Of a stretch of 64,000 nucleotides of DNA, positions 15,001-21,000 are shown in pieces (position 1 is the first letter of the stretch; every line of letters starts with the position of its first letter). This stretch comes from a bacterium (GTDB lineage: Bacteria; UBA8248), in assembly GCA_965203325.1 (NCBI GenBank), contig OZ241875.1:1760001-1824000 (forward strand), given 5' to 3'. The position numbers are program-made.

Positions 15001-18000
15001 ACCTCCAGCCCCCCGCAGCGAGCGAGGCCCGCGCCCATCACGTCCACCAAAGCGGCGGGGTCGAGGCCGGCCTTGGCCCCGAACACGAGCGCCTCGCCCA
15101 CGCCCAGGAAAGTGACGGCCACCAGAATCTGGTTCGCGAGCTTGGCAATGCACCCCGAACCCGCTGGCTCGCCCACGTGCACTACTTTCGCGCCCAGAAC
15201 GTCGAGCAGGGGCTTGCAGCGCGCGAAGACGTCCTCGGGACCCCCGGCCATGATGGCGAGCGTGCCCCCGGCCGCCCCCTCGGGCGCGCCCGATACCGGC
15301 GCGTCGAGCATACCGACTCCCTTGCCGGAAAGAGCTTCGGCGACCTCGGCGGAGAAGGCCGGGTCGTTGCTCGTGCAATCCACCAGAACGCTGCCTGACT
15401 TCATAGCTTGAAAAAGCCCGTTTTCCGAATAAACCACGTCTTTCAGGTTGGGTGCGTCGGGCAGCATGGTGAAGACGACTTCCGAATGCGCCGCCACCTC
15501 GGCGGGCGAATCGCACGCCCTTGCGCCCTCCGCCGCGATCTCATCCACCGGCGGGCGGCTGCGGCTCGATACCGCCAGCGGATACCCCGCCGCCAGAAAA
15601 CGCCGCGCCATCGGCTTTCCCATCAGACCCAGTCCCACGAAACCAACCGCCGTCTTGGCCATCTCTTCCTCCCTGACGATGCGCAACCGCTCTTTCGGGG
15701 ATAATAGGGCAACCGCATGGGCGAGACAAACGAGGGTCAAACCCGATCGAGGAGGATTCGCCCGGCACGAAAAATCCGGCCTCCGGCGCACAAGAACCGG
15801 GCCGCGAATTGACAGACTCCCCGAACCTTCCTACTTTGCGCGCAATTGCCCTCAACCGAAATGCGACACTACCCAAATCAACAGAGGACCCCAATCCATG
15901 AAAAACTATTTTCTCTCAAAGAGCGTGATCATCCTCTCTTTGCTGCTCCTCGCCTCACCTGCCTTGGCCGACAAGCACGCGCAAAAACGCGGCACGCCCG
16001 CGGAGGCGCAGGCCATGGTGGCGAAAGCCGTCGCCCTGTTCGAGGAGGTAGGCGCCAAGGCGGCCTTCGACCGCTTCACGAACCGCCCTGGCGCCGACTT
16101 CAAACACTTGGATCTATACATCTTCGTACTCAAAGCGGAAGAAGGCGCGCGCATCGTCGCCCACGCCCAGACCCGCTCGCTCATCGGCACGAAAGCGACC
16201 ACACTCATCGACCCGAACGGCCTCAACATCGGGCGCGCCGCTCTGGAGAAAGCCACGGCAAAGGGCGCATGGGTGGACTACGGATGGAAAGACCCGCTCA
16301 CGGGCAAGACCGTGCCCAAGTCCTCGTGGGCCGTCCGCCACAAGGGATTCATCTTCGGCTGCGGCATCCACAAGCCGTGAGTCGAGCCTGACCTGGGAGG
16401 GGGTTGCGCTTCCGTAGGGTCAATCCAACATACCTGCCATCCGCGTGTTCCCGACCACGCGCGTCTGCAAATTTGGTTTGATCGTCATTCTCGTAGATGC
16501 TTATCTGTAGAGACGGGTCGAGACCTGTGGGACAGCCCCGAGGAGGGGCTGTCACTACGGATTATTTCCATGGAAGGTGAGAGGAATTCCCAACGGGCTT
16601 GGTTTTTCCCTCATCCTGACGAAAGTGCACCGGGCGGACAGGCGCGGAGGCCTGTCCCTACACGACTGCAGAAGAAGAATTTGCCGGAATCTGGCAGGGG
16701 CCGTTCGCGAACGTGGGCCGTTCACAAGAACGGTCCACTACAGATCAAACTCGACCAAGACGGGAAATCGGCTTCCAGGCAGCGCGACTAAAGCCCCTCC
16801 TCGGTTTCCCCCCCAAACCCCTCGCCGACGCCTTGCGTATCAGAACTGCCGCACGAAGCGAAGCTCGGCCCGGGTGCGCTTGTAGTCGTAGAGCTGGGCA
16901 TTGGACTCGCGCTCTTCCTCCACGACGATGAGCTGCGGACTGAAGCCGAAAGTCGTGAAACCCCGGTTGAATATGGAAACGCTGAAGATGCGCACATCGT
17001 CCTCGCGCGATGAATTGTCGGAGACGAAGGGAAACCACCCGCCCGAGTAATCCGTAGAGCGAAGCTCCGCATTCGCTCCCACGGTGAAACCGAAGGGAAG
17101 AGCGATCGAGGCGCCCAGGCGTCCCCACCGACTGCGGTTGCGCCAGGTGCGCGATTCGGGGTTTTCGGCCGCGTAGCCGAGCCCGCCCCGGACCTGGAGC
17201 GTCGGCGTGAGCACCCATGAACCCACCAGCGCTAGATCCAGTTGCGAACCGTCGAAATGCTTGTCGCGCTCATAGTCGCGCTCGTGTATGGAGGCGCGCC
17301 CGCTCAGGCGGATGCGGCGCGTGAGGCGGCGTTCGAGTTCGAAGCGCGCGCCGATCTCGTGGCTGTGGACGAGACCGCCGCTTCTGCGCTGGCGCGCGCT
17401 GGCGAGCAGGCTCATCTCGGTGTTGGGGCTGATCCACCAGCGCGGCCCGGCGTGGAGGGAAATCGTCATTTGATCGAAGTTGCTGCCCTCATACTCCCGG
17501 CGGGAGACGTCCGCGCCCAAACGCAGGCGCAGGCGCTTGTCCAAGGGATGCTGGTATTCCCACCCGCCCCAGAAGACGAAGCCGAGTCCCGAGCTTTCAC
17601 CTTCGAAATTGTTGCGGCGGAAGGGCAGATCGTAGATGTAGATGACCTCCGAATCCGACACCGCGCCGATGTTCGTGTCCGGCGCCAGGGAAAAGCCGAA
17701 ATGCGCGCTCCAGCGCCTGCGCGCGCGCATGATGCGCAGGAAGCGGTTGATGTTGGCGACCATCGCCTTGGGCGGCTTTCCGGCGAGGACGCGATCGAAG
17801 TGGAGGCGGGACAGGTCGTCCTCTCTCTTGTAGAAGAACGCACGCGCGAGTTCGAGCCGCACACGCACGAGACCAGGCTGCGCGACGAGGATGGCCCTGA
17901 GCGCGGCGATGGCTTCATCGAGAAGGGCGAGCTTCTCCTTCGCCCTGTCCGGAGGCAGGCGCCTCGATGCCTCGATGGCCGAAAGTCCGAAAAGAAAAAG

Positions 18001-21000
18001 CACGTCCGTCCTGTCGGCGCGGCCCTTCGACTCCCTTGCAATGGGACCCAGAAGTTTGAGCGCCCCGAAGTAGCGGCGCTGCTTGATAAGTCCGCGCGCG
18101 GCCTGGACCTTCGGGTCCCTGGAGAGATGAGACTGCGAGGGCGCGGCAACGGCGTCCCCCGCCGCGAAATGCGCGAGCGCGACGAGCGTGATGCAGGCCA
18201 TGAGCAGGATGATTTTTTTCATGGTTTGCGGCGTGAGACGAGCGTATCCGCCCCTCGTCCGTTTCCTCCTTCGGCGACGAAATTCGCATTTGCGCCGCCC
18301 GGGCGAGGAGAACCCCATCCGAACGGACGATGCCGAAGTCTGCTACATCGGCCTCCTAAAAGCAACTCCCCCGCCCCTTGGCTCGAAACCGAGGCCCCTT
18401 GTCAGGGAGTAGAGGGGACACCCCTCCCGAACGAAAAACCAACCCCCCTGGCCCCCCTTGTCAGGGGGGTAAAGGCGATGCGTCCAACCGGGGGAGTAAA
18501 AGAAAAACTCCCCGGACAAGTGGGGTTGGTGGTTGAACCCGACCGGGGAGGAAGGGTTCACGGCCGAAACCGGCCCCGCTCGGCTCCCGACAAAATAAAG
18601 AGGGCGGCCCTTAGGCCGCCCTCCCTTTGCTGCGCATTGCTCCGCCCCGGAACGCGGGGCGCACTTCCCGGCGCCGCAGGCTCTTACTGCTTCCTTGCGC
18701 CGAACCCGCCGGCCACGGAGCCGTTCGTGAACTCGGCGTTGAACTCGCCGACCACGGAACCGGGCTGGGGAACCGTTCCATCAGCCGCGGCCGTCACGTC
18801 CCCATGGAAAGTAGCGCTGAACGAGCCGTCACCAACTCCCCCCTTGGCCGTGCCGGACGCGGTTCCGTCACCGGGAGTAATAGCTCCCTGCAAAGCCACG
18901 CTCCACTCGTTCTCCTCGTCGCCGGACAACATGAAGTTGTCGATGGTTCCACTGACGGTGTTGAGCAAGTTGGGCGCGATTGTGCCCGTGGTGTCTGTCG
19001 CGGAGACCGGCACCTGACCGAAGGTCGCCATCAGGCTGACGTCCGCCGTGAAGTGGCCGGAGGTGGCCACGTCGAGCGTGCGGTCGGAGTTGTACACGTT
19101 TTTCACGTACACGCCCACGGCGCCTCCTTCATACGTCGCGCTTCCTAAAACGGCATTGACATCGCCGCTCGCGGCGACCGAAGAGCCCGCGAAGGTCTCG
19201 ACCTCGTTGTAGGTGACCGCGCCGTCAGCGTCCGTCGTCTTCTTCAGCCAGAAGCCGTAATGGAGGTAATCGGAATCCGGCACGTCGGAGGTGGCCCCCG
19301 CAGCGGGAGTGAAAACCCAGTCGCCGGTGATGGCGGTTATTTCACCGTCCCCATCAAGCGTCACAGTACAAGCAGCGGCGCCATTACACCTGTAGGTGCC
19401 CATGGCGCCGTTGTAGGTGCCCGCGACCTCGTCAGCCTCGTCTTCGTCTGCGTCAGTCGTCGCGGGGTCGTCGAAATCGAAGGTGTGCGTGACAGTATCG
19501 CCAGTTGCAGCAACAAACGCCGGCGACATGATCTTCGGCAGGTTCACATCGTCGGCGCCTGCCGCGATGGTGAGAGCGGTAAAGTCGTTGCCCGGGGTGC
19601 CGTCCCCGTCGGCGTCCTCGGTGTCATCGAGGTCACGCGCATTCAGCGCCTGACCCGTCACCATAGCGAACGCCGTGGGCGAGGGCGCTTCGATGTCGGT
19701 GCTGACTATCACGACTTCTTCCATCACGTTGCCGTCATCATCCGCCGCCATCGCGCGCGTGTGCATGGTGCGTCCGCTGCCCAGATCCATAGCCTGCATG
19801 AATTTAGGAGCATCGTCAGCCGCCCCGGCGACGGTGATATTGACTTCCGTGCCGTCACGATCACGGCTGATGGCGATCGTATGATCGGTAGTGGCATCCT
19901 CACCGCCGGCTCCATCGTCGGTCGCCTGAGCGGCTTCGGCCGCAATGGCCGTTTCTTTCGTCCCGGCCTCCTTGTTCTTCGCCTCTTGCACCACCCGATC
20001 AGCGGCCTTCGTTGCCGCCGCCGTCACCATCCCGGCGTACATCACGACTTTGTCTCTTGCGGTCTCGACGCTCGCCTGGGCGTCTTCCGCCACAGTGGAG
20101 GTCGTTGCCGCTTGGGCGATGGCGTTCGCCGCCTTCGCTTCGGCTAAGGCTTCTTCGGCCTTGCTGTAGGAATCCATGTCATGGCTCGCGTCGTCCATGA
20201 CGGCGGCCAGCGCCATTTTCGCGGCTTCGTACGCCGTCATCGCCGCGGTTTTCGCGGCGGCGAGCTTCTGGGCTTCCGTCGGTTCCGGCGTCGTCATGGT
20301 GTCACCATCGCCGTTACTTGCCGATCCGCCGCCCCCGCCGCCGCAGCCGGCCAGCGTCGCCGCGAGCAGGAGCGCCATTCCGAATACATACAACTTGTTG
20401 ATGGGTGTTTTTACGCAGAACAACATTGAGTGAGTCCTCCTCATCGTCGTGATAAGGCCTCCATGAGAAGGCCCCCGTATGAGGCCTCCCGAAAGAAGGC
20501 CTCCCGTGTGAAACTAGAGAATCAAATCGCCATCCTTCCGATCATAGAGTCAGAATCCACCCTGGCCCCGACGGCCACGCGAACGGAAAAGTCATCCGAA
20601 AACATACAATTTGTCGGTGGGTGTTTTGGTGCAGAACAACATTTGGCGCAAAACAGCATTGAGTGAGTCCTCCGCATCGTCGTGATAAGGCCCTCATGAG
20701 AAGGCCTCCCGTGCTACCGGAAAATCAAATTTACACCTTTCCGATCATAGAGTCAAAGTCTGTTTCGACCTCTATGGTCATGATGCCGGCACTGCCTGAA
20801 GTAAAACATGCGTCTTTCCAGGCCTGCTGCAACCTTTTCCGATATTCAACCTCCTTTCTTTCTCCCGTGTTTCCGACTTTCCGGTGTTATCCGACTCTCA
20901 TGATCACGTTGTCCGAAACCACTCGCGCGCAAGCGTTTCGCGCGAAAGTTCACCTCGCAACAGAATCATGAAATCCCTTTTGATTTACCACATCCGCCTC

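Follow-up and report, generated by a model that had tools for sequence, protein, structure and literature searches.

Known systems

Slam1 and Slam2 of Neisseria, together with TbpB, LbpB, fHbp and HpuA, constitute type 11 secretion (T11SS) (Hooda 2017, PMC5449769). The Neisseria system shares with the one analysed here a DUF560/SlipAM barrel with a helical N-terminal domain, lipoprotein cargo built of a lipobox, a handle and an 8-stranded barrel at the C-terminus, and adjacent cargo and Slam genes, where one Slam may serve several cargo. The present system differs in having about 20 candidate cargo per single Slam, a cargo below all Pfam cargo-domain cut-offs, a long helical stalk ahead of the handle, no TonB-dependent receptor partner, carriers that are sponge-metagenome MAGs, many without a Proteobacteria label, and seven members that appear, from their sequence, to be controlled by DNA inversion. 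Grossman et al. (2025, PMC12282271) surveyed Proteobacteria only and predict three parts for T11SS cargo: an effector at the N-terminus that varies and is alpha-helical in some, a beta 'pedestal', and an 8-stranded barrel at the C-terminus. The model of the lipoprotein g01601 of this study shows the same three-part plan. The words sponge, phyla, outside and phase varia- are absent from that survey. It describes marine cluster-3 T11SS as seldom found together with barrel cargo; in the present system it is a barrel cargo that keeps synteny with the Slam.

The window, a stretch of 64,000 nucleotides (contig OZ241875.1, positions 1,760,001 to 1,824,000), likely holds a T11SS with its cognate cargo; this conserved gene pair, together with an expanded repertoire and inverton switches elsewhere in the genome, would give a changing surface display.

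In the fimS switch of E. coli (FimB/FimE) and in Cre/lox-type systems, a promoter segment lies between inverted sites and is turned round by a tyrosine recombinase whose gene adjoins the segment; a Cre/lox-type site consists of two arms around an asymmetric spacer. The switches of this genome likewise combine a short promoter segment, inverted two-arm sites with an asymmetric spacer and an adjoining tyrosine recombinase gene. Unlike fimS, they occur in 16 copies per genome, carry eight spacer variants matched within each locus, point the OFF promoter at the recombinase gene with a terminator in its path, and control genes for cadherin/Calx-beta proteins as well as for T11SS cargo. Bacteroides genomes, too, are described as having many promoter invertons each; there they control capsules and SusC/D-like proteins and diversify the surface of a host-associated bacterium in a combinatorial way. 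Those of the present genome control other genes, belong to a different recombinase-site family and phylum, and each tends to adjoin its own recombinase gene.

The Slam gene and protein

16840..18222, minus strand: Slam/T11SS outer-membrane protein gene (g01600), Pfam SlipAM, 460 aa with signal peptide
17719..18114, minus strand: N-terminal domain (residues 37-168), TPR-like and periplasmic, modelled as seven helices
16846..17712, minus strand: beta-barrel at the C-terminus (residues 171-459), with 14 long strands by DSSP of the model

The Slam ORF as listed is longer (16840..18318), and the start that yields the signal peptide (MKKIILLM...) is at 18222. The identification of g01600 as a Slam in the genome-wide survey's note was borne out: the protein matched SlipAM over the entire profile (1-288) at 2e-26 with 93.6 bits, where the cut-off is 22, and the genome scan reproduced that note's 6.2e-27 and 95.5 bits for the only SlipAM copy in the genome. 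The gene's wide occurrence in the genus, noted earlier for at least 19 of 22 genomes, now extends to 21 of the 22; within the window's own phylum 26 of 51 genomes carry it. Modelling (pLDDT 85.4, pTM 0.76) gave the two domains listed above. The N-terminal domain stayed below the threshold of Pfam TPR_Slam (20.3 bits against 35.2). OmpG, FadL and CymA were the top Foldseek matches of the barrel, and the TPR-plus-barrel exporters BcsC and PelBC were also among the matches of the protein.

The cargo lipoprotein

18684..20426, minus strand: cargo lipoprotein gene g01601, an ORF of 580 aa with an ATG start behind GGAGGA
20325..20354, minus strand: lipobox L-A-G-C with its Cys codon at 20343-20345, then six Gly codons, read from the sequence
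19929..20276, minus strand: helical stalk, model residues 36-151, with helices 36-59, 62-67, 69-91 and 95-151 at pLDDT 84-95
19182..19919, minus strand: beta 'handle/pedestal', model residues ~155-400, by structural alignment together with the barrel
18687..19181, minus strand: C-terminal 8-stranded barrel, model residues ~401-565, with GGFGARKQ at its end, by structural alignment

No Pfam family matched g01601 at E<=1. The barrel fold, which had been a gap in the earlier account, is now predicted (pLDDT 86.5, pTM 0.76). The barrel aligned with the NHBA C-domain (6cuj) at Z 15.5 (rmsd 2.7, 143/146 residues) and with the fHbp C-barrel (4ayn) at Z 13.9 (rmsd 2.4, 116/125 residues), handle and barrel together with the TbpB C-lobe, HphA, HpuA and fHbp at Z 12.7-13.9 over 172-200 residues, and the model with the TbpB C-lobe and HphA at Z ~13. 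All 40 PDB matches found by Foldseek at E<=0.001 were HpuA, TbpB, NHBA, fHbp, hemophilin/HphA or LbpB. For g01601 a handle and an 8-stranded barrel, the fold of known Slam cargo, are thus predicted with confidence, and the model matches no other class.

An export route with surface exposure is proposed by analogy with the known systems. By this analogy the 580-aa precursor would leave through Sec, be lipidated at the Cys of L-A-G-C and then be carried to the outer membrane, where the single Slam, with its periplasmic helical domain and 14-stranded barrel, would recognise the C-terminal 8-stranded barrel of the cargo and move it to the cell surface. The exposed protein would be anchored by its lipid, with a Gly6 tether and then a helical stalk of ~115 residues leading to the handle and barrel as a head.

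Region between and upstream of the two genes

18597..18626, minus strand: terminator-like hairpin between the cargo gene and the Slam gene, 13 pairs, 9 of them G-C, with a T-rich tail, by consensus scan
20379..20760, minus strand: g01601 leader and a degenerate upstream tandem copy of the leader plus first codons (repeat families D1, D2, D3, D8)
20728..20756, minus strand: sole sigma-70-like promoter match upstream of g01601, TTGACT-17-TAAATT, weak (1 found against 0.9 by chance)

The hairpin comes from a consensus scan that found 5 terminator-like sites, where shuffled sequence would be expected to give 4.7. It points to separate transcription units or to attenuation of the read-through, so that g01601 and the Slam gene need not be co-transcribed. 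The leader copies (20595-20760 and 20379-20557) are 76-88% identical, and the promoter match sits within the upstream one. No invertible promoter was found at g01601, the invertons of the genome all lying outside the window, and no TonB-dependent receptor or uptake gene was found beside the pair in the window.

The cargo-Slam pair in other genomes

Both genes lie where the earlier note had placed them, a Slam gene adjoining a 580-aa lipoprotein gene on the minus strand, and this arrangement recurs elsewhere. Among 70 related loci, a Slam ORF was found within 3 kb in 39, and downstream on the same strand in 36. As g01601 reaches no Pfam cargo-domain cut-off, its identity as cargo rests on the predicted fold and this synteny. 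Were it an ordinary outer-membrane lipoprotein facing the periplasm, with the Slam gene beside it by coincidence, the missing Pfam cargo domain and the hairpin between the genes would fit; we regard this as highly improbable, since the order is kept in those 36 loci across differently labelled phyla and the fold matches Slam cargo alone. The analysis supports the reading of the window's pair as a Slam plus Slam-type cargo.

The bacterium is sponge-associated, and the carriers of the pair are sponge-metagenome MAGs. Their labels, which are those of the MAG submitters, include Alpha- and Gammaproteobacteria, Nitrospirales and Deltaproteobacteria; a few matches come from short contigs with the labels Chloroflexi or Acidimicrobiia, possibly mis-binned. 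Five whole genomes, bearing the labels Nitrospirales, Binatia, Thermodesulfobacteriota, Alpha- and Gammaproteobacteria, were tested for SlipAM, and all five had it. As proposed earlier, the system is present in genomes that bear labels other than Proteobacteria, and its description as a device of an uncultured phylum proved too narrow. The new result is that the cargo-Slam order is common to sponge-metagenome MAGs labelled as several phyla: cargo-then-Slam is a conserved two-gene module, and the window's member is the constant partner that travels with the Slam across phyla.

No partner other than the Slam was conserved beside the pair, the commonest neighbour family occurring at 9 of the 70 loci. 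One BLAST cluster of ORFs lies in the flanks (within 3 kb) of 9/70 loci, and all three of its scanned ORFs carried Arm-DNA-bind_3 and Phage_integrase. Because the pair occurs in MAGs labelled as several phyla, at some loci beside island-type integrases, it has probably spread by horizontal transfer. The Slam tree groups by taxon label, with Nitrospirota as one clade, so transfers were few or old, if any.

The candidate cargo repertoire

Analysis of 10,332 stop-to-stop ORFs (150 aa or longer) revealed the earlier note's C-terminal pattern (the tail like G-A-F-G-A-x-K-Q), sought in the last 14 residues, in 21 ORFs, a lipobox plus GGG in 19 and both in 15 (hypergeometric p 1.7e-40). Five of the six ORFs with the tail and no lipobox plus GGG were TbpB_B_D-positive or corresponded to the latter half of a disrupted family member; the remaining one is apparently a chance match. 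An iterated barrel profile converged on 15 ORFs. A lipobox plus at least three Gly was found in 17 ORFs, 12 of them with LAGC plus at least four Gly; the earlier signature holds, and its count of 11 becomes 12. The shared signal peptide and tail of the proposed 15-member repertoire were confirmed, and its size is nearer 20-23, the number of candidates counted; the one Slam of the genome would serve about 20 cargo genes, a family that has expanded in this lineage. At the genome level Pfam gave 10 TbpB_B_D matches in 7 ORFs; g01601 and 14 further paralogues reached no Pfam cargo-domain cut-off, TbpB_B_D being sub-threshold in 4 of 15 paralogues scanned. The cargo family occurs in 20 of 51 genomes of the window's phylum and in 17 of 22 of the genus, in which the Slam (21/22) is likewise concentrated. 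These results support a large paralogous repertoire with a common signal peptide and tail.

The family paralogues combine a near-identical signal peptide with mosaic bodies, and in their handle region a Met-His-x-Arg stretch is almost invariant and two Cys are invariant. Speculatively, these could be ligand-binding residues. The model of g01601 is about as close to hemophilin/HphA (Z 13.1-13.5) and TbpB as it is to fHbp. Both points would suit cargo exported by the same system and acting as nutrient scavengers (binders of haem, metal or cofactor like hemophilin/HphA or TbpB) rather than as binders of sponge molecules, with a repertoire that mirrors different nutrients. We consider this possible but rather unlikely. 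No TonB-dependent receptor or uptake gene was conserved beside the pair in the 70 loci, as in the window, so a TbpA/TbpB model of nutrient uptake is without local support, and phase-variable expression of many mosaic paralogues is more usual for surface recognition than for nutrient uptake. The earlier proposals that the proteins bind sponge molecules and that their variation is antigenic are conceivable but gained no support from the analysis.

Invertible promoters

The genome contains 16 invertons, of which 3 are ON and 13 OFF in the assembly; 7 front cargo-family genes (1 ON, 6 OFF). The claim that members lie behind invertible promoters is therefore upheld for these seven and does not extend to the window's own. 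Each segment is a constant 177 bp between lox-like sites of the form CCGNTAAT-N5-TTATYGG and carries the promoter TTGACA-17-TATATT. In 15 of the 16 elements the two ends have the same spacer; in the OFF orientation a hairpin plus T-run, read by eye, follows the promoter. All three recombinase copies tested carried Pfam Phage_integrase (63-68 bits). Comparison of the ON locus with its closest OFF paralogue showed 144 of 161 positions of the middle segment identical when inverted and 86 of 161 in the same orientation, against a gene-side flank of 213/228. An opposite-strand joint at the site boundaries was found in two of four public runs (on short contigs); since the paralogues share flanks, it is not assignable to a single locus.

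The elements might alternatively be fossil or dispersed repeats that have stopped switching, each a copy of some small mobile element whose ends are inverted repeats, and the silent genes simply silent. The 13 OFF elements among 16, the OFF state of all nine family loci examined in two genus relatives (eight in G026, one in G015), the apparent truncation of some adjoining recombinase genes and an in-frame TAG in one switch-linked cargo gene would agree with this. We find it improbable, as intact Phage_integrase-domain recombinase genes adjoin elements, spacers match within the locus despite eight variants in the genome, and both orientations are seen between otherwise co-linear flanks. The matched spacers suggest selection for recombination competence, and the data support that several cargo genes lie behind a genuine inverton with an adjoining tyrosine recombinase gene.

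From the switch anatomy and the orientations across paralogous loci, present-day switching would proceed as follows. The seven cargo genes would be transcribed only when the promoter of the 177-bp segment points at the gene; in the other orientation it would fire into the terminator. With seven switched genes and the unswitched window member, a cell would display one constant cargo, that of the window, plus a changing subset.

The same inverton family also fronts large Calx-beta/cadherin-like/fn3 surface proteins, so that the surface would be varied generally. This would suit a switchable repertoire for escape from phages (or predators) that use the lipoproteins as receptors, rather than for dealings with the host, and inverton surface variation in Bacteroides is reported to be tied to phage predation (10.64898/2026.08.07.743496). 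Such a role is conceivable although we lean against it: the conserved cargo is common to cross-phylum sponge-metagenome MAGs, which fits a host-related role of the constant member at least.

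The Slam gene and its product

The window lies on a single 4.39-Mb contig, and positions 16840-20426 of the window are occupied by two minus-strand genes.

16840..18318, minus strand: Slam ORF as listed; translation from 18222 provides a signal peptide, MKKIILLMACITLVALAHFAAGDAVA, and a protein of 460 aa
18684..20426, minus strand: g01601, cargo lipoprotein gene; 580 aa from an ATG eight bases behind GGAGGA

The genome-wide survey's note had identified the first gene as a Slam, and had attributed a barrel fold of the Slam-cargo type to the neighbouring lipoprotein family despite the lack of Pfam matches. 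Both claims hold in the present analysis, the fold as a prediction for the window's own lipoprotein. Pfam analysis of the Slam protein revealed the SlipAM/DUF560 domain along the full profile (1-288; E 2e-26, 93.6 bits against a cut-off of 22), and one SlipAM gene was found in the genome. TPR_Slam matched the protein weakly (20.3 bits against a cut-off of 35.2). In the predicted model, built on alignment A2 of 29 sequences (pLDDT 85.4), residues 37-168 form seven helices and residues 171-459 contain 14 long strands. The top Foldseek matches of this model in the PDB were OmpG, FadL and CymA, whose barrels are 14-stranded, and the TPR-plus-barrel exporters BcsC and PelBC were also matched; no row of this PDB listing was a Slam. 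Comparison of the Slam protein with sequences of solved structures gave nothing below E 0.1, and NCBIfam gave nothing meaningful for either the Slam or the g01601 protein. With its helical, possibly TPR-like N-terminal part and its 14-strand barrel, the predicted model resembles the layout given for Slam in PMC5449769, where a TPR domain at the N-terminus precedes a DUF560 barrel with 14 predicted strands.

The cargo lipoprotein of the window

The g01601 protein begins with a signal peptide ending in LLLAATLAGC, with L-A-G-C at residues 25-28, followed by six glycines, and it ends in VAGGFGARKQ. Its gene is separated from the Slam gene on the same strand by 461 nt, and this gap contains a strong terminator-like hairpin at 18626-18597. 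No Pfam family was matched at E<=1, TbpB_B_D (PF01298) and FHBP_C included, and the protein is therefore a structural rather than a Pfam-level member of the cargo families. Searching the sequences of solved structures returned Gly-linker matches to scFv antibodies only, and these were set aside.

An AlphaFold2 model of the g01601 protein, predicted from alignment A1 of 45 family members, reached a mean pLDDT of 86.5 and a pTM of 0.76. The model runs from a disordered tether through helices (36-151) and a beta region (167 to about 400) to a final barrel (about 401-565), so that a predicted handle/pedestal beta domain precedes the barrel. Foldseek analysis against the PDB (E<=0.001) revealed 40 matches, all of them to HpuA, TbpB, NHBA, fHbp, hemophilin/HphA or LbpB, which are Slam-cargo-type folds. 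Alignment with VIA-align gave Z 15.5 and rmsd 2.7 over 143 of 146 residues for the NHBA C-domain, and Z 13.9 and rmsd 2.4 over 116 of 125 residues for the isolated fHbp C-terminal barrel; for the handle/pedestal and barrel together, Z was 12.4-13.5 over 172-196 residues with TbpB C-lobes, HphA and HpuA. On structural and genetic grounds, rather than through the Pfam cargo families, the two window genes thus appear to encode a Slam and a Slam-dependent lipoprotein. Prediction of a complex between Slam 32-460 and the cargo barrel (395-565) scored 0.01 against a mark of 0.32, which speaks neither for nor against binding.

Two further structural leads were followed for the g01601 protein. For the helical stalk, a helix bundle of a trypanosome surface protein came up at Z 12.9, a value within the chance range for long helices. 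For the handle region, the best ESM Atlas scores were 0.82 and 0.78, short of the level of more than a lead.

By analogy with the Neisseria system, the g01601 precursor would be exported, lipidated at Cys28 and transferred to the outer membrane, and Slam would then pass the lipoprotein to the surface by reading its C-terminal barrel. At the surface, the mature lipoprotein would be raised on the Gly6 tether and the helical stalk. No inverton is present in front of g01601, where one weak promoter match was found. Upstream of the real start, at 20595-20760, lies a degenerate tandem copy of the g01601 leader, ribosome-binding site and first codons (76-88% identical), which may be the remnant of recombination between family members.

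Repertoire of cargo candidates in the genome

A pattern scan of all ORFs revealed 17 in which three or more glycines follow a lipobox; 12 of these carry LAGC with at least four glycines and have near-identical signal peptides. A shared signature of signal peptide and C-terminal tail had been claimed in the survey's note, together with the placement of several family members behind invertible promoters, and both observations were reproduced. Of the genome's 10,332 ORFs with a length of 150 aa or more, 21 have the C-terminal pattern proposed in that note, 19 have a lipobox with GGG, and 15 have both features (p 1.7e-40). Five of the six ORFs with the tail only are further relatives.

Profile searches extended this set. 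Run iteratively against the ORFs of this genome until it converged, the barrel profile collected 15 ORFs, including three small lipoproteins that have no terminal tail. Pfam TbpB_B_D occurs in the genome as 10 matches in seven ORFs, with four of the matches in one ORF of 1,718 aa; matches in whole-genome searches do not equal gene counts. None of the 15 LAGC-type paralogues exceeded a Pfam cut-off, and TbpB_B_D was sub-threshold in four of them. The union of the scans comprises 20 tail-bearing ORFs; they represent 19 genes, because two ORFs are halves of one broken gene. With the three small lipoproteins added, roughly 20-23 candidate cargo proteins are present for the single Slam.

The paralogues have mosaic sequences. 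The query stretch of one gene, which starts 141 nt into the gene, is 85% identical to a second gene along its first 860 nt, and the rest of the stretch is 70-73% identical to two other genes.

Two side observations concern single members. A switch-controlled family member at contig positions 1409860-1411617 (minus strand; L003) contains a single in-frame TAG, and is either a pseudogene or has its TAG read through. Two small tail-bearing lipoprotein ORFs, in the contig regions 1023242-1029691 and 3365253-3371705, share the same N-terminal stretch and have nearly alike C-termini that differ in the last residue. About 6.4 kb separate each ORF from an inverton, and the flanks of both invertons are alike; the paired ORFs and like-flanked invertons point to a segmental duplication of several kilobases.

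Promoter invertons

Alignment of upstream regions revealed about 400 nt of sequence common to seven family members. This stretch holds a perfect TTGACA-17-nt spacer-TATATT promoter, with a 31-nt core that is present in 16 copies across the genome. The core belongs to an invertible segment (inverton) bounded by inverted sites of the form CCGNTAAT-N5-TTATYGG at a constant distance of 177 bp, with the promoter at one end of the segment. On the gene side, every inverton is followed by a conserved leader that runs into the gene. The opposite side always carries a hairpin and then a T-run. Most copies also have an ORF there, about 330-360 aa long, and Pfam Phage_integrase was found in all three such ORFs tested (63, 68.4 and 65.6 bits).

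Orientation was read from one assembly per genome. Three of the 16 invertons face the gene (ON) and 13 face the terminator (OFF). Among the seven lipoprotein invertons, one is ON (gene at 2672958-2675630) and six are OFF. Comparison of the ON locus with its closest OFF paralogue showed co-linear flanks (213/228 positions identical on the gene side, 79/100 on the other side), while the middle segments match only when inverted: 144/161 positions are identical after reverse complementation and 86/161 otherwise. The other nine invertons, two of them ON, front proteins that start with MKNIARISML, including one at contig positions 2073500-2080000 (L127). Seven MKNIARISML ORFs were listed, of about 900-1,400 aa; Calx-beta, cadherin-like and fn3 domains were found in the single ORF tested.

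The ON locus was also followed in four public runs, represented by short contigs, and in the other genomes of the genus. In two of the four runs an opposite-strand joint (740<->931) lies exactly at the site boundaries, and it is not assignable to the ON locus because the paralogues share flanks; loose ends of the run contigs read into the terminator side. Six of 22 other genus genomes matched the ON gene, two of them strongly at the DNA level (the related genomes G026 and G015) and four through short weak matches. These matches are mosaic, and therefore provide no orthologous locus of opposite orientation for comparison.

The five central bases of the sites are the same at both ends in 15 of the 16 invertons, and eight variants of them occur among the elements. 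Tyrosine recombinases need spacer homology. Since the spacers match within a locus and differ among loci, each switch could invert without recombining with the other fifteen. In the proposed scheme, g01601 would be the constant member of the repertoire, and the seven others would be expressed only when a tyrosine recombinase flips the promoter segment; in the OFF state the inverton promoter would run into the terminator.

Between the inverton and the start codon of the seven switch-controlled cargo loci (L002-L008) lies a leader of about 225 nt, conserved in the seven genes and partly common to the adhesin-type genes. It contains a second Shine-Dalgarno-like sequence, GAAAGGAGG, about 75 nt before the start. 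A riboswitch was considered for this leader and rejected: it had no Rfam match at E<=1, and two matches elsewhere in the loci were at chance level. RNAalifold analysis of the seven leaders revealed compensatory change in one of 60 pairs, and a structured-RNA leader is therefore unsupported. In the window, Rfam returned nothing at gathering score.

Distribution of the cargo family and its Slam

The cargo family comprises at least 798 matches among the candidates scored. In the fully scored library of 1.84 billion, 1,754, 1,050 and 274 cluster representatives belong to the family at E<=1e-3, 1e-10 and 1e-30, respectively. A scan of species-representative genomes revealed 70 loci whose products match the g01601 protein at 38-80% identity over the head region (about residues 140-565). 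The taxon names of these loci are submitters' labels: Alphaproteobacteria (the commonest), Gammaproteobacteria/Thiotrichales, Nitrospirales/Nitrospira, Nitrospinota, Binatia, Deltaproteobacteria, Thermodesulfobacteriota and plain 'bacterium'. Several of these loci come from complete chromosomes; three short contigs labelled Chloroflexi or Acidimicrobiia may be mis-binned.

With a Slam profile of 12 sequences, 39 of the 70 loci proved to have a Slam ORF. The window's arrangement, with Slam downstream of the cargo gene and on its strand, occurs in 36 of them; in two the Slam ORF is on the other strand and in one upstream. The 36 loci with the window's order carry the following labels: 18 alphaproteobacterial, seven Nitrospirales/Nitrospira, five gammaproteobacterial, one Deltaproteobacteria, one Thermodesulfobacteriota (a fragment) and four unlabelled. 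SlipAM was found in all five whole genomes tested, labelled Nitrospirales, Binatia, Thermodesulfobacteriota, Alphaproteobacteria and Gammaproteobacteria, and the Nitrospirales-labelled genome has two SlipAM copies, each behind a cargo gene. On one Nitrospirales-labelled chromosome, two cargo-Slam pairs (L046 and L062) stand in tandem on the same strand, about 8 kb apart.

Within the window's phylum, Slam occurs in 26 of 51 genomes and five of 15 genera, and the cargo family in 20 of 51 genomes and three of 15 genera; the corresponding counts for the window's genus are 21 and 17 of 22 genomes. The system is thus patchy within the phylum. In a quick maximum-likelihood tree of 33 Slams, made without an outgroup or a named reference Slam, the sequences cluster according to label. 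All six Nitrospirota Slams fall in one clade (SH-aLRT 100), the window's Slam groups with four unlabelled MAGs, and Pseudomonadota need two changes. As the Slams group by label, transfers, if they are the explanation, were few or old.

An ORF of one BLAST cluster was found in the flanks (<=3 kb) of nine of the 70 loci, including L032, L045, L053, L054 and L066. All three scanned members of this cluster combine Arm-DNA-bind_3 with Phage_integrase, the make-up of an island integrase. Apart from Slam and this integrase, the 70 loci revealed no conserved neighbour, and in particular no TonB-dependent receptor. Integrase-flanked cargo or cargo-Slam loci were seen in MAGs labelled Binatia, Deltaproteobacteria, Defluviicoccus and Alphaproteobacteria.

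Four of the 70 loci, three labelled Nitrospinota and one 'bacterium', have the inverton promoter core ahead of the cargo gene, all in the OFF orientation. It was not found in those labelled Proteobacteria or Nitrospirales, and the strict inverton-site pattern was found in none of the 70.

Setting and significance

In the introduction of an mBio 2021 paper, the type 11 secretion (Slam) system, T11SS, is placed "throughout the phylum Proteobacteria". The search described in Hooda 2017 (PMC5449769) was confined to proteobacterial clades, and in that account the proteobacterial restriction is therefore partly by design. The words sponge, phyla, outside and phase varia- do not occur in the text of the cargo survey of Grossman et al. 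2025 (PMC12282271). In these papers, T11SS is treated as a proteobacterial system and studied mostly in pathogens. Among open-access full texts, no paper was found that joins sponge with T11SS or Slam, or sponge symbiont with inverton or phase variation. The machinery and the switch logic are known; the taxonomic and ecological setting and the combination are new.

Overall, our analysis leads to a composite reading that we advance tentatively, its chance as a whole being slightly short of even. A cargo-Slam cassette would have moved between phyla in sponge microbiomes (the window's lineage, Nitrospirota, Binatia, Desulfobacterota-type bacteria, Alpha- and Gammaproteobacteria); its conserved lipoprotein would recognise, at the cell surface, a feature shared across the sponge habitat. 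The window's lineage would have amplified the cargo to a mosaic family of about 20 members and wired this family to a Cre/lox-like multi-inverton system, in which locus-specific spacers insulate 16 switches, giving programmed surface variation via T11SS. If this reading is true as a whole, T11SS would be described here for the first time from outside Proteobacteria, and for the first time under the control of DNA inversion. Slam here accompanies, as its conserved partner, a large lipoprotein family that lacks annotation and is common to sponge-metagenome MAGs labelled as several phyla, and sponge-symbiosis research gains a specific candidate surface recognition molecule that can be put to the test. 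The genome is also a natural case in which a single translocon would serve a repertoire that can be switched, and it contains 16 recombinase switches that are apparently mutually insulated.

Habitat and neighbouring genes

Public runs in which part of this genome occurs (a paralogue and its switch, both outside the window) were labelled 'sponge metagenome' in eight of 14 rows at a word share of at least 0.2; the other six rows at this share had coded organism entries. The genes upstream of g01601 include the following.

21208-22002: DUF169 gene, between the cargo gene and the transposase
22126-23571, minus strand: DDE transposase (DUF772, DDE_Tnp_1_6 and DDE_Tnp_1), about 1.7 kb upstream of the cargo gene
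24095-25075, plus strand: ankyrin-repeat protein of 326 aa (Pfam Ank 133 bits, Ank_2 130 bits)
28341-29555: N6/N4 DNA methylase, in a low-GC stretch with two ORFs (221 and 560 aa) that have no Pfam match

Ankyrin-repeat proteins, which are eukaryote-like, are common in sponge symbionts and often reported from them. As a precedent, one gene cluster common to sponge symbionts of ten phyla, UBA8248 included, is described in PMC9531527. The low-GC stretch extends from about 25900 to 29600, with a GC content of 0.40-0.44 against about 0.62 around it, and is probably a foreign restriction-modification or defence islet.
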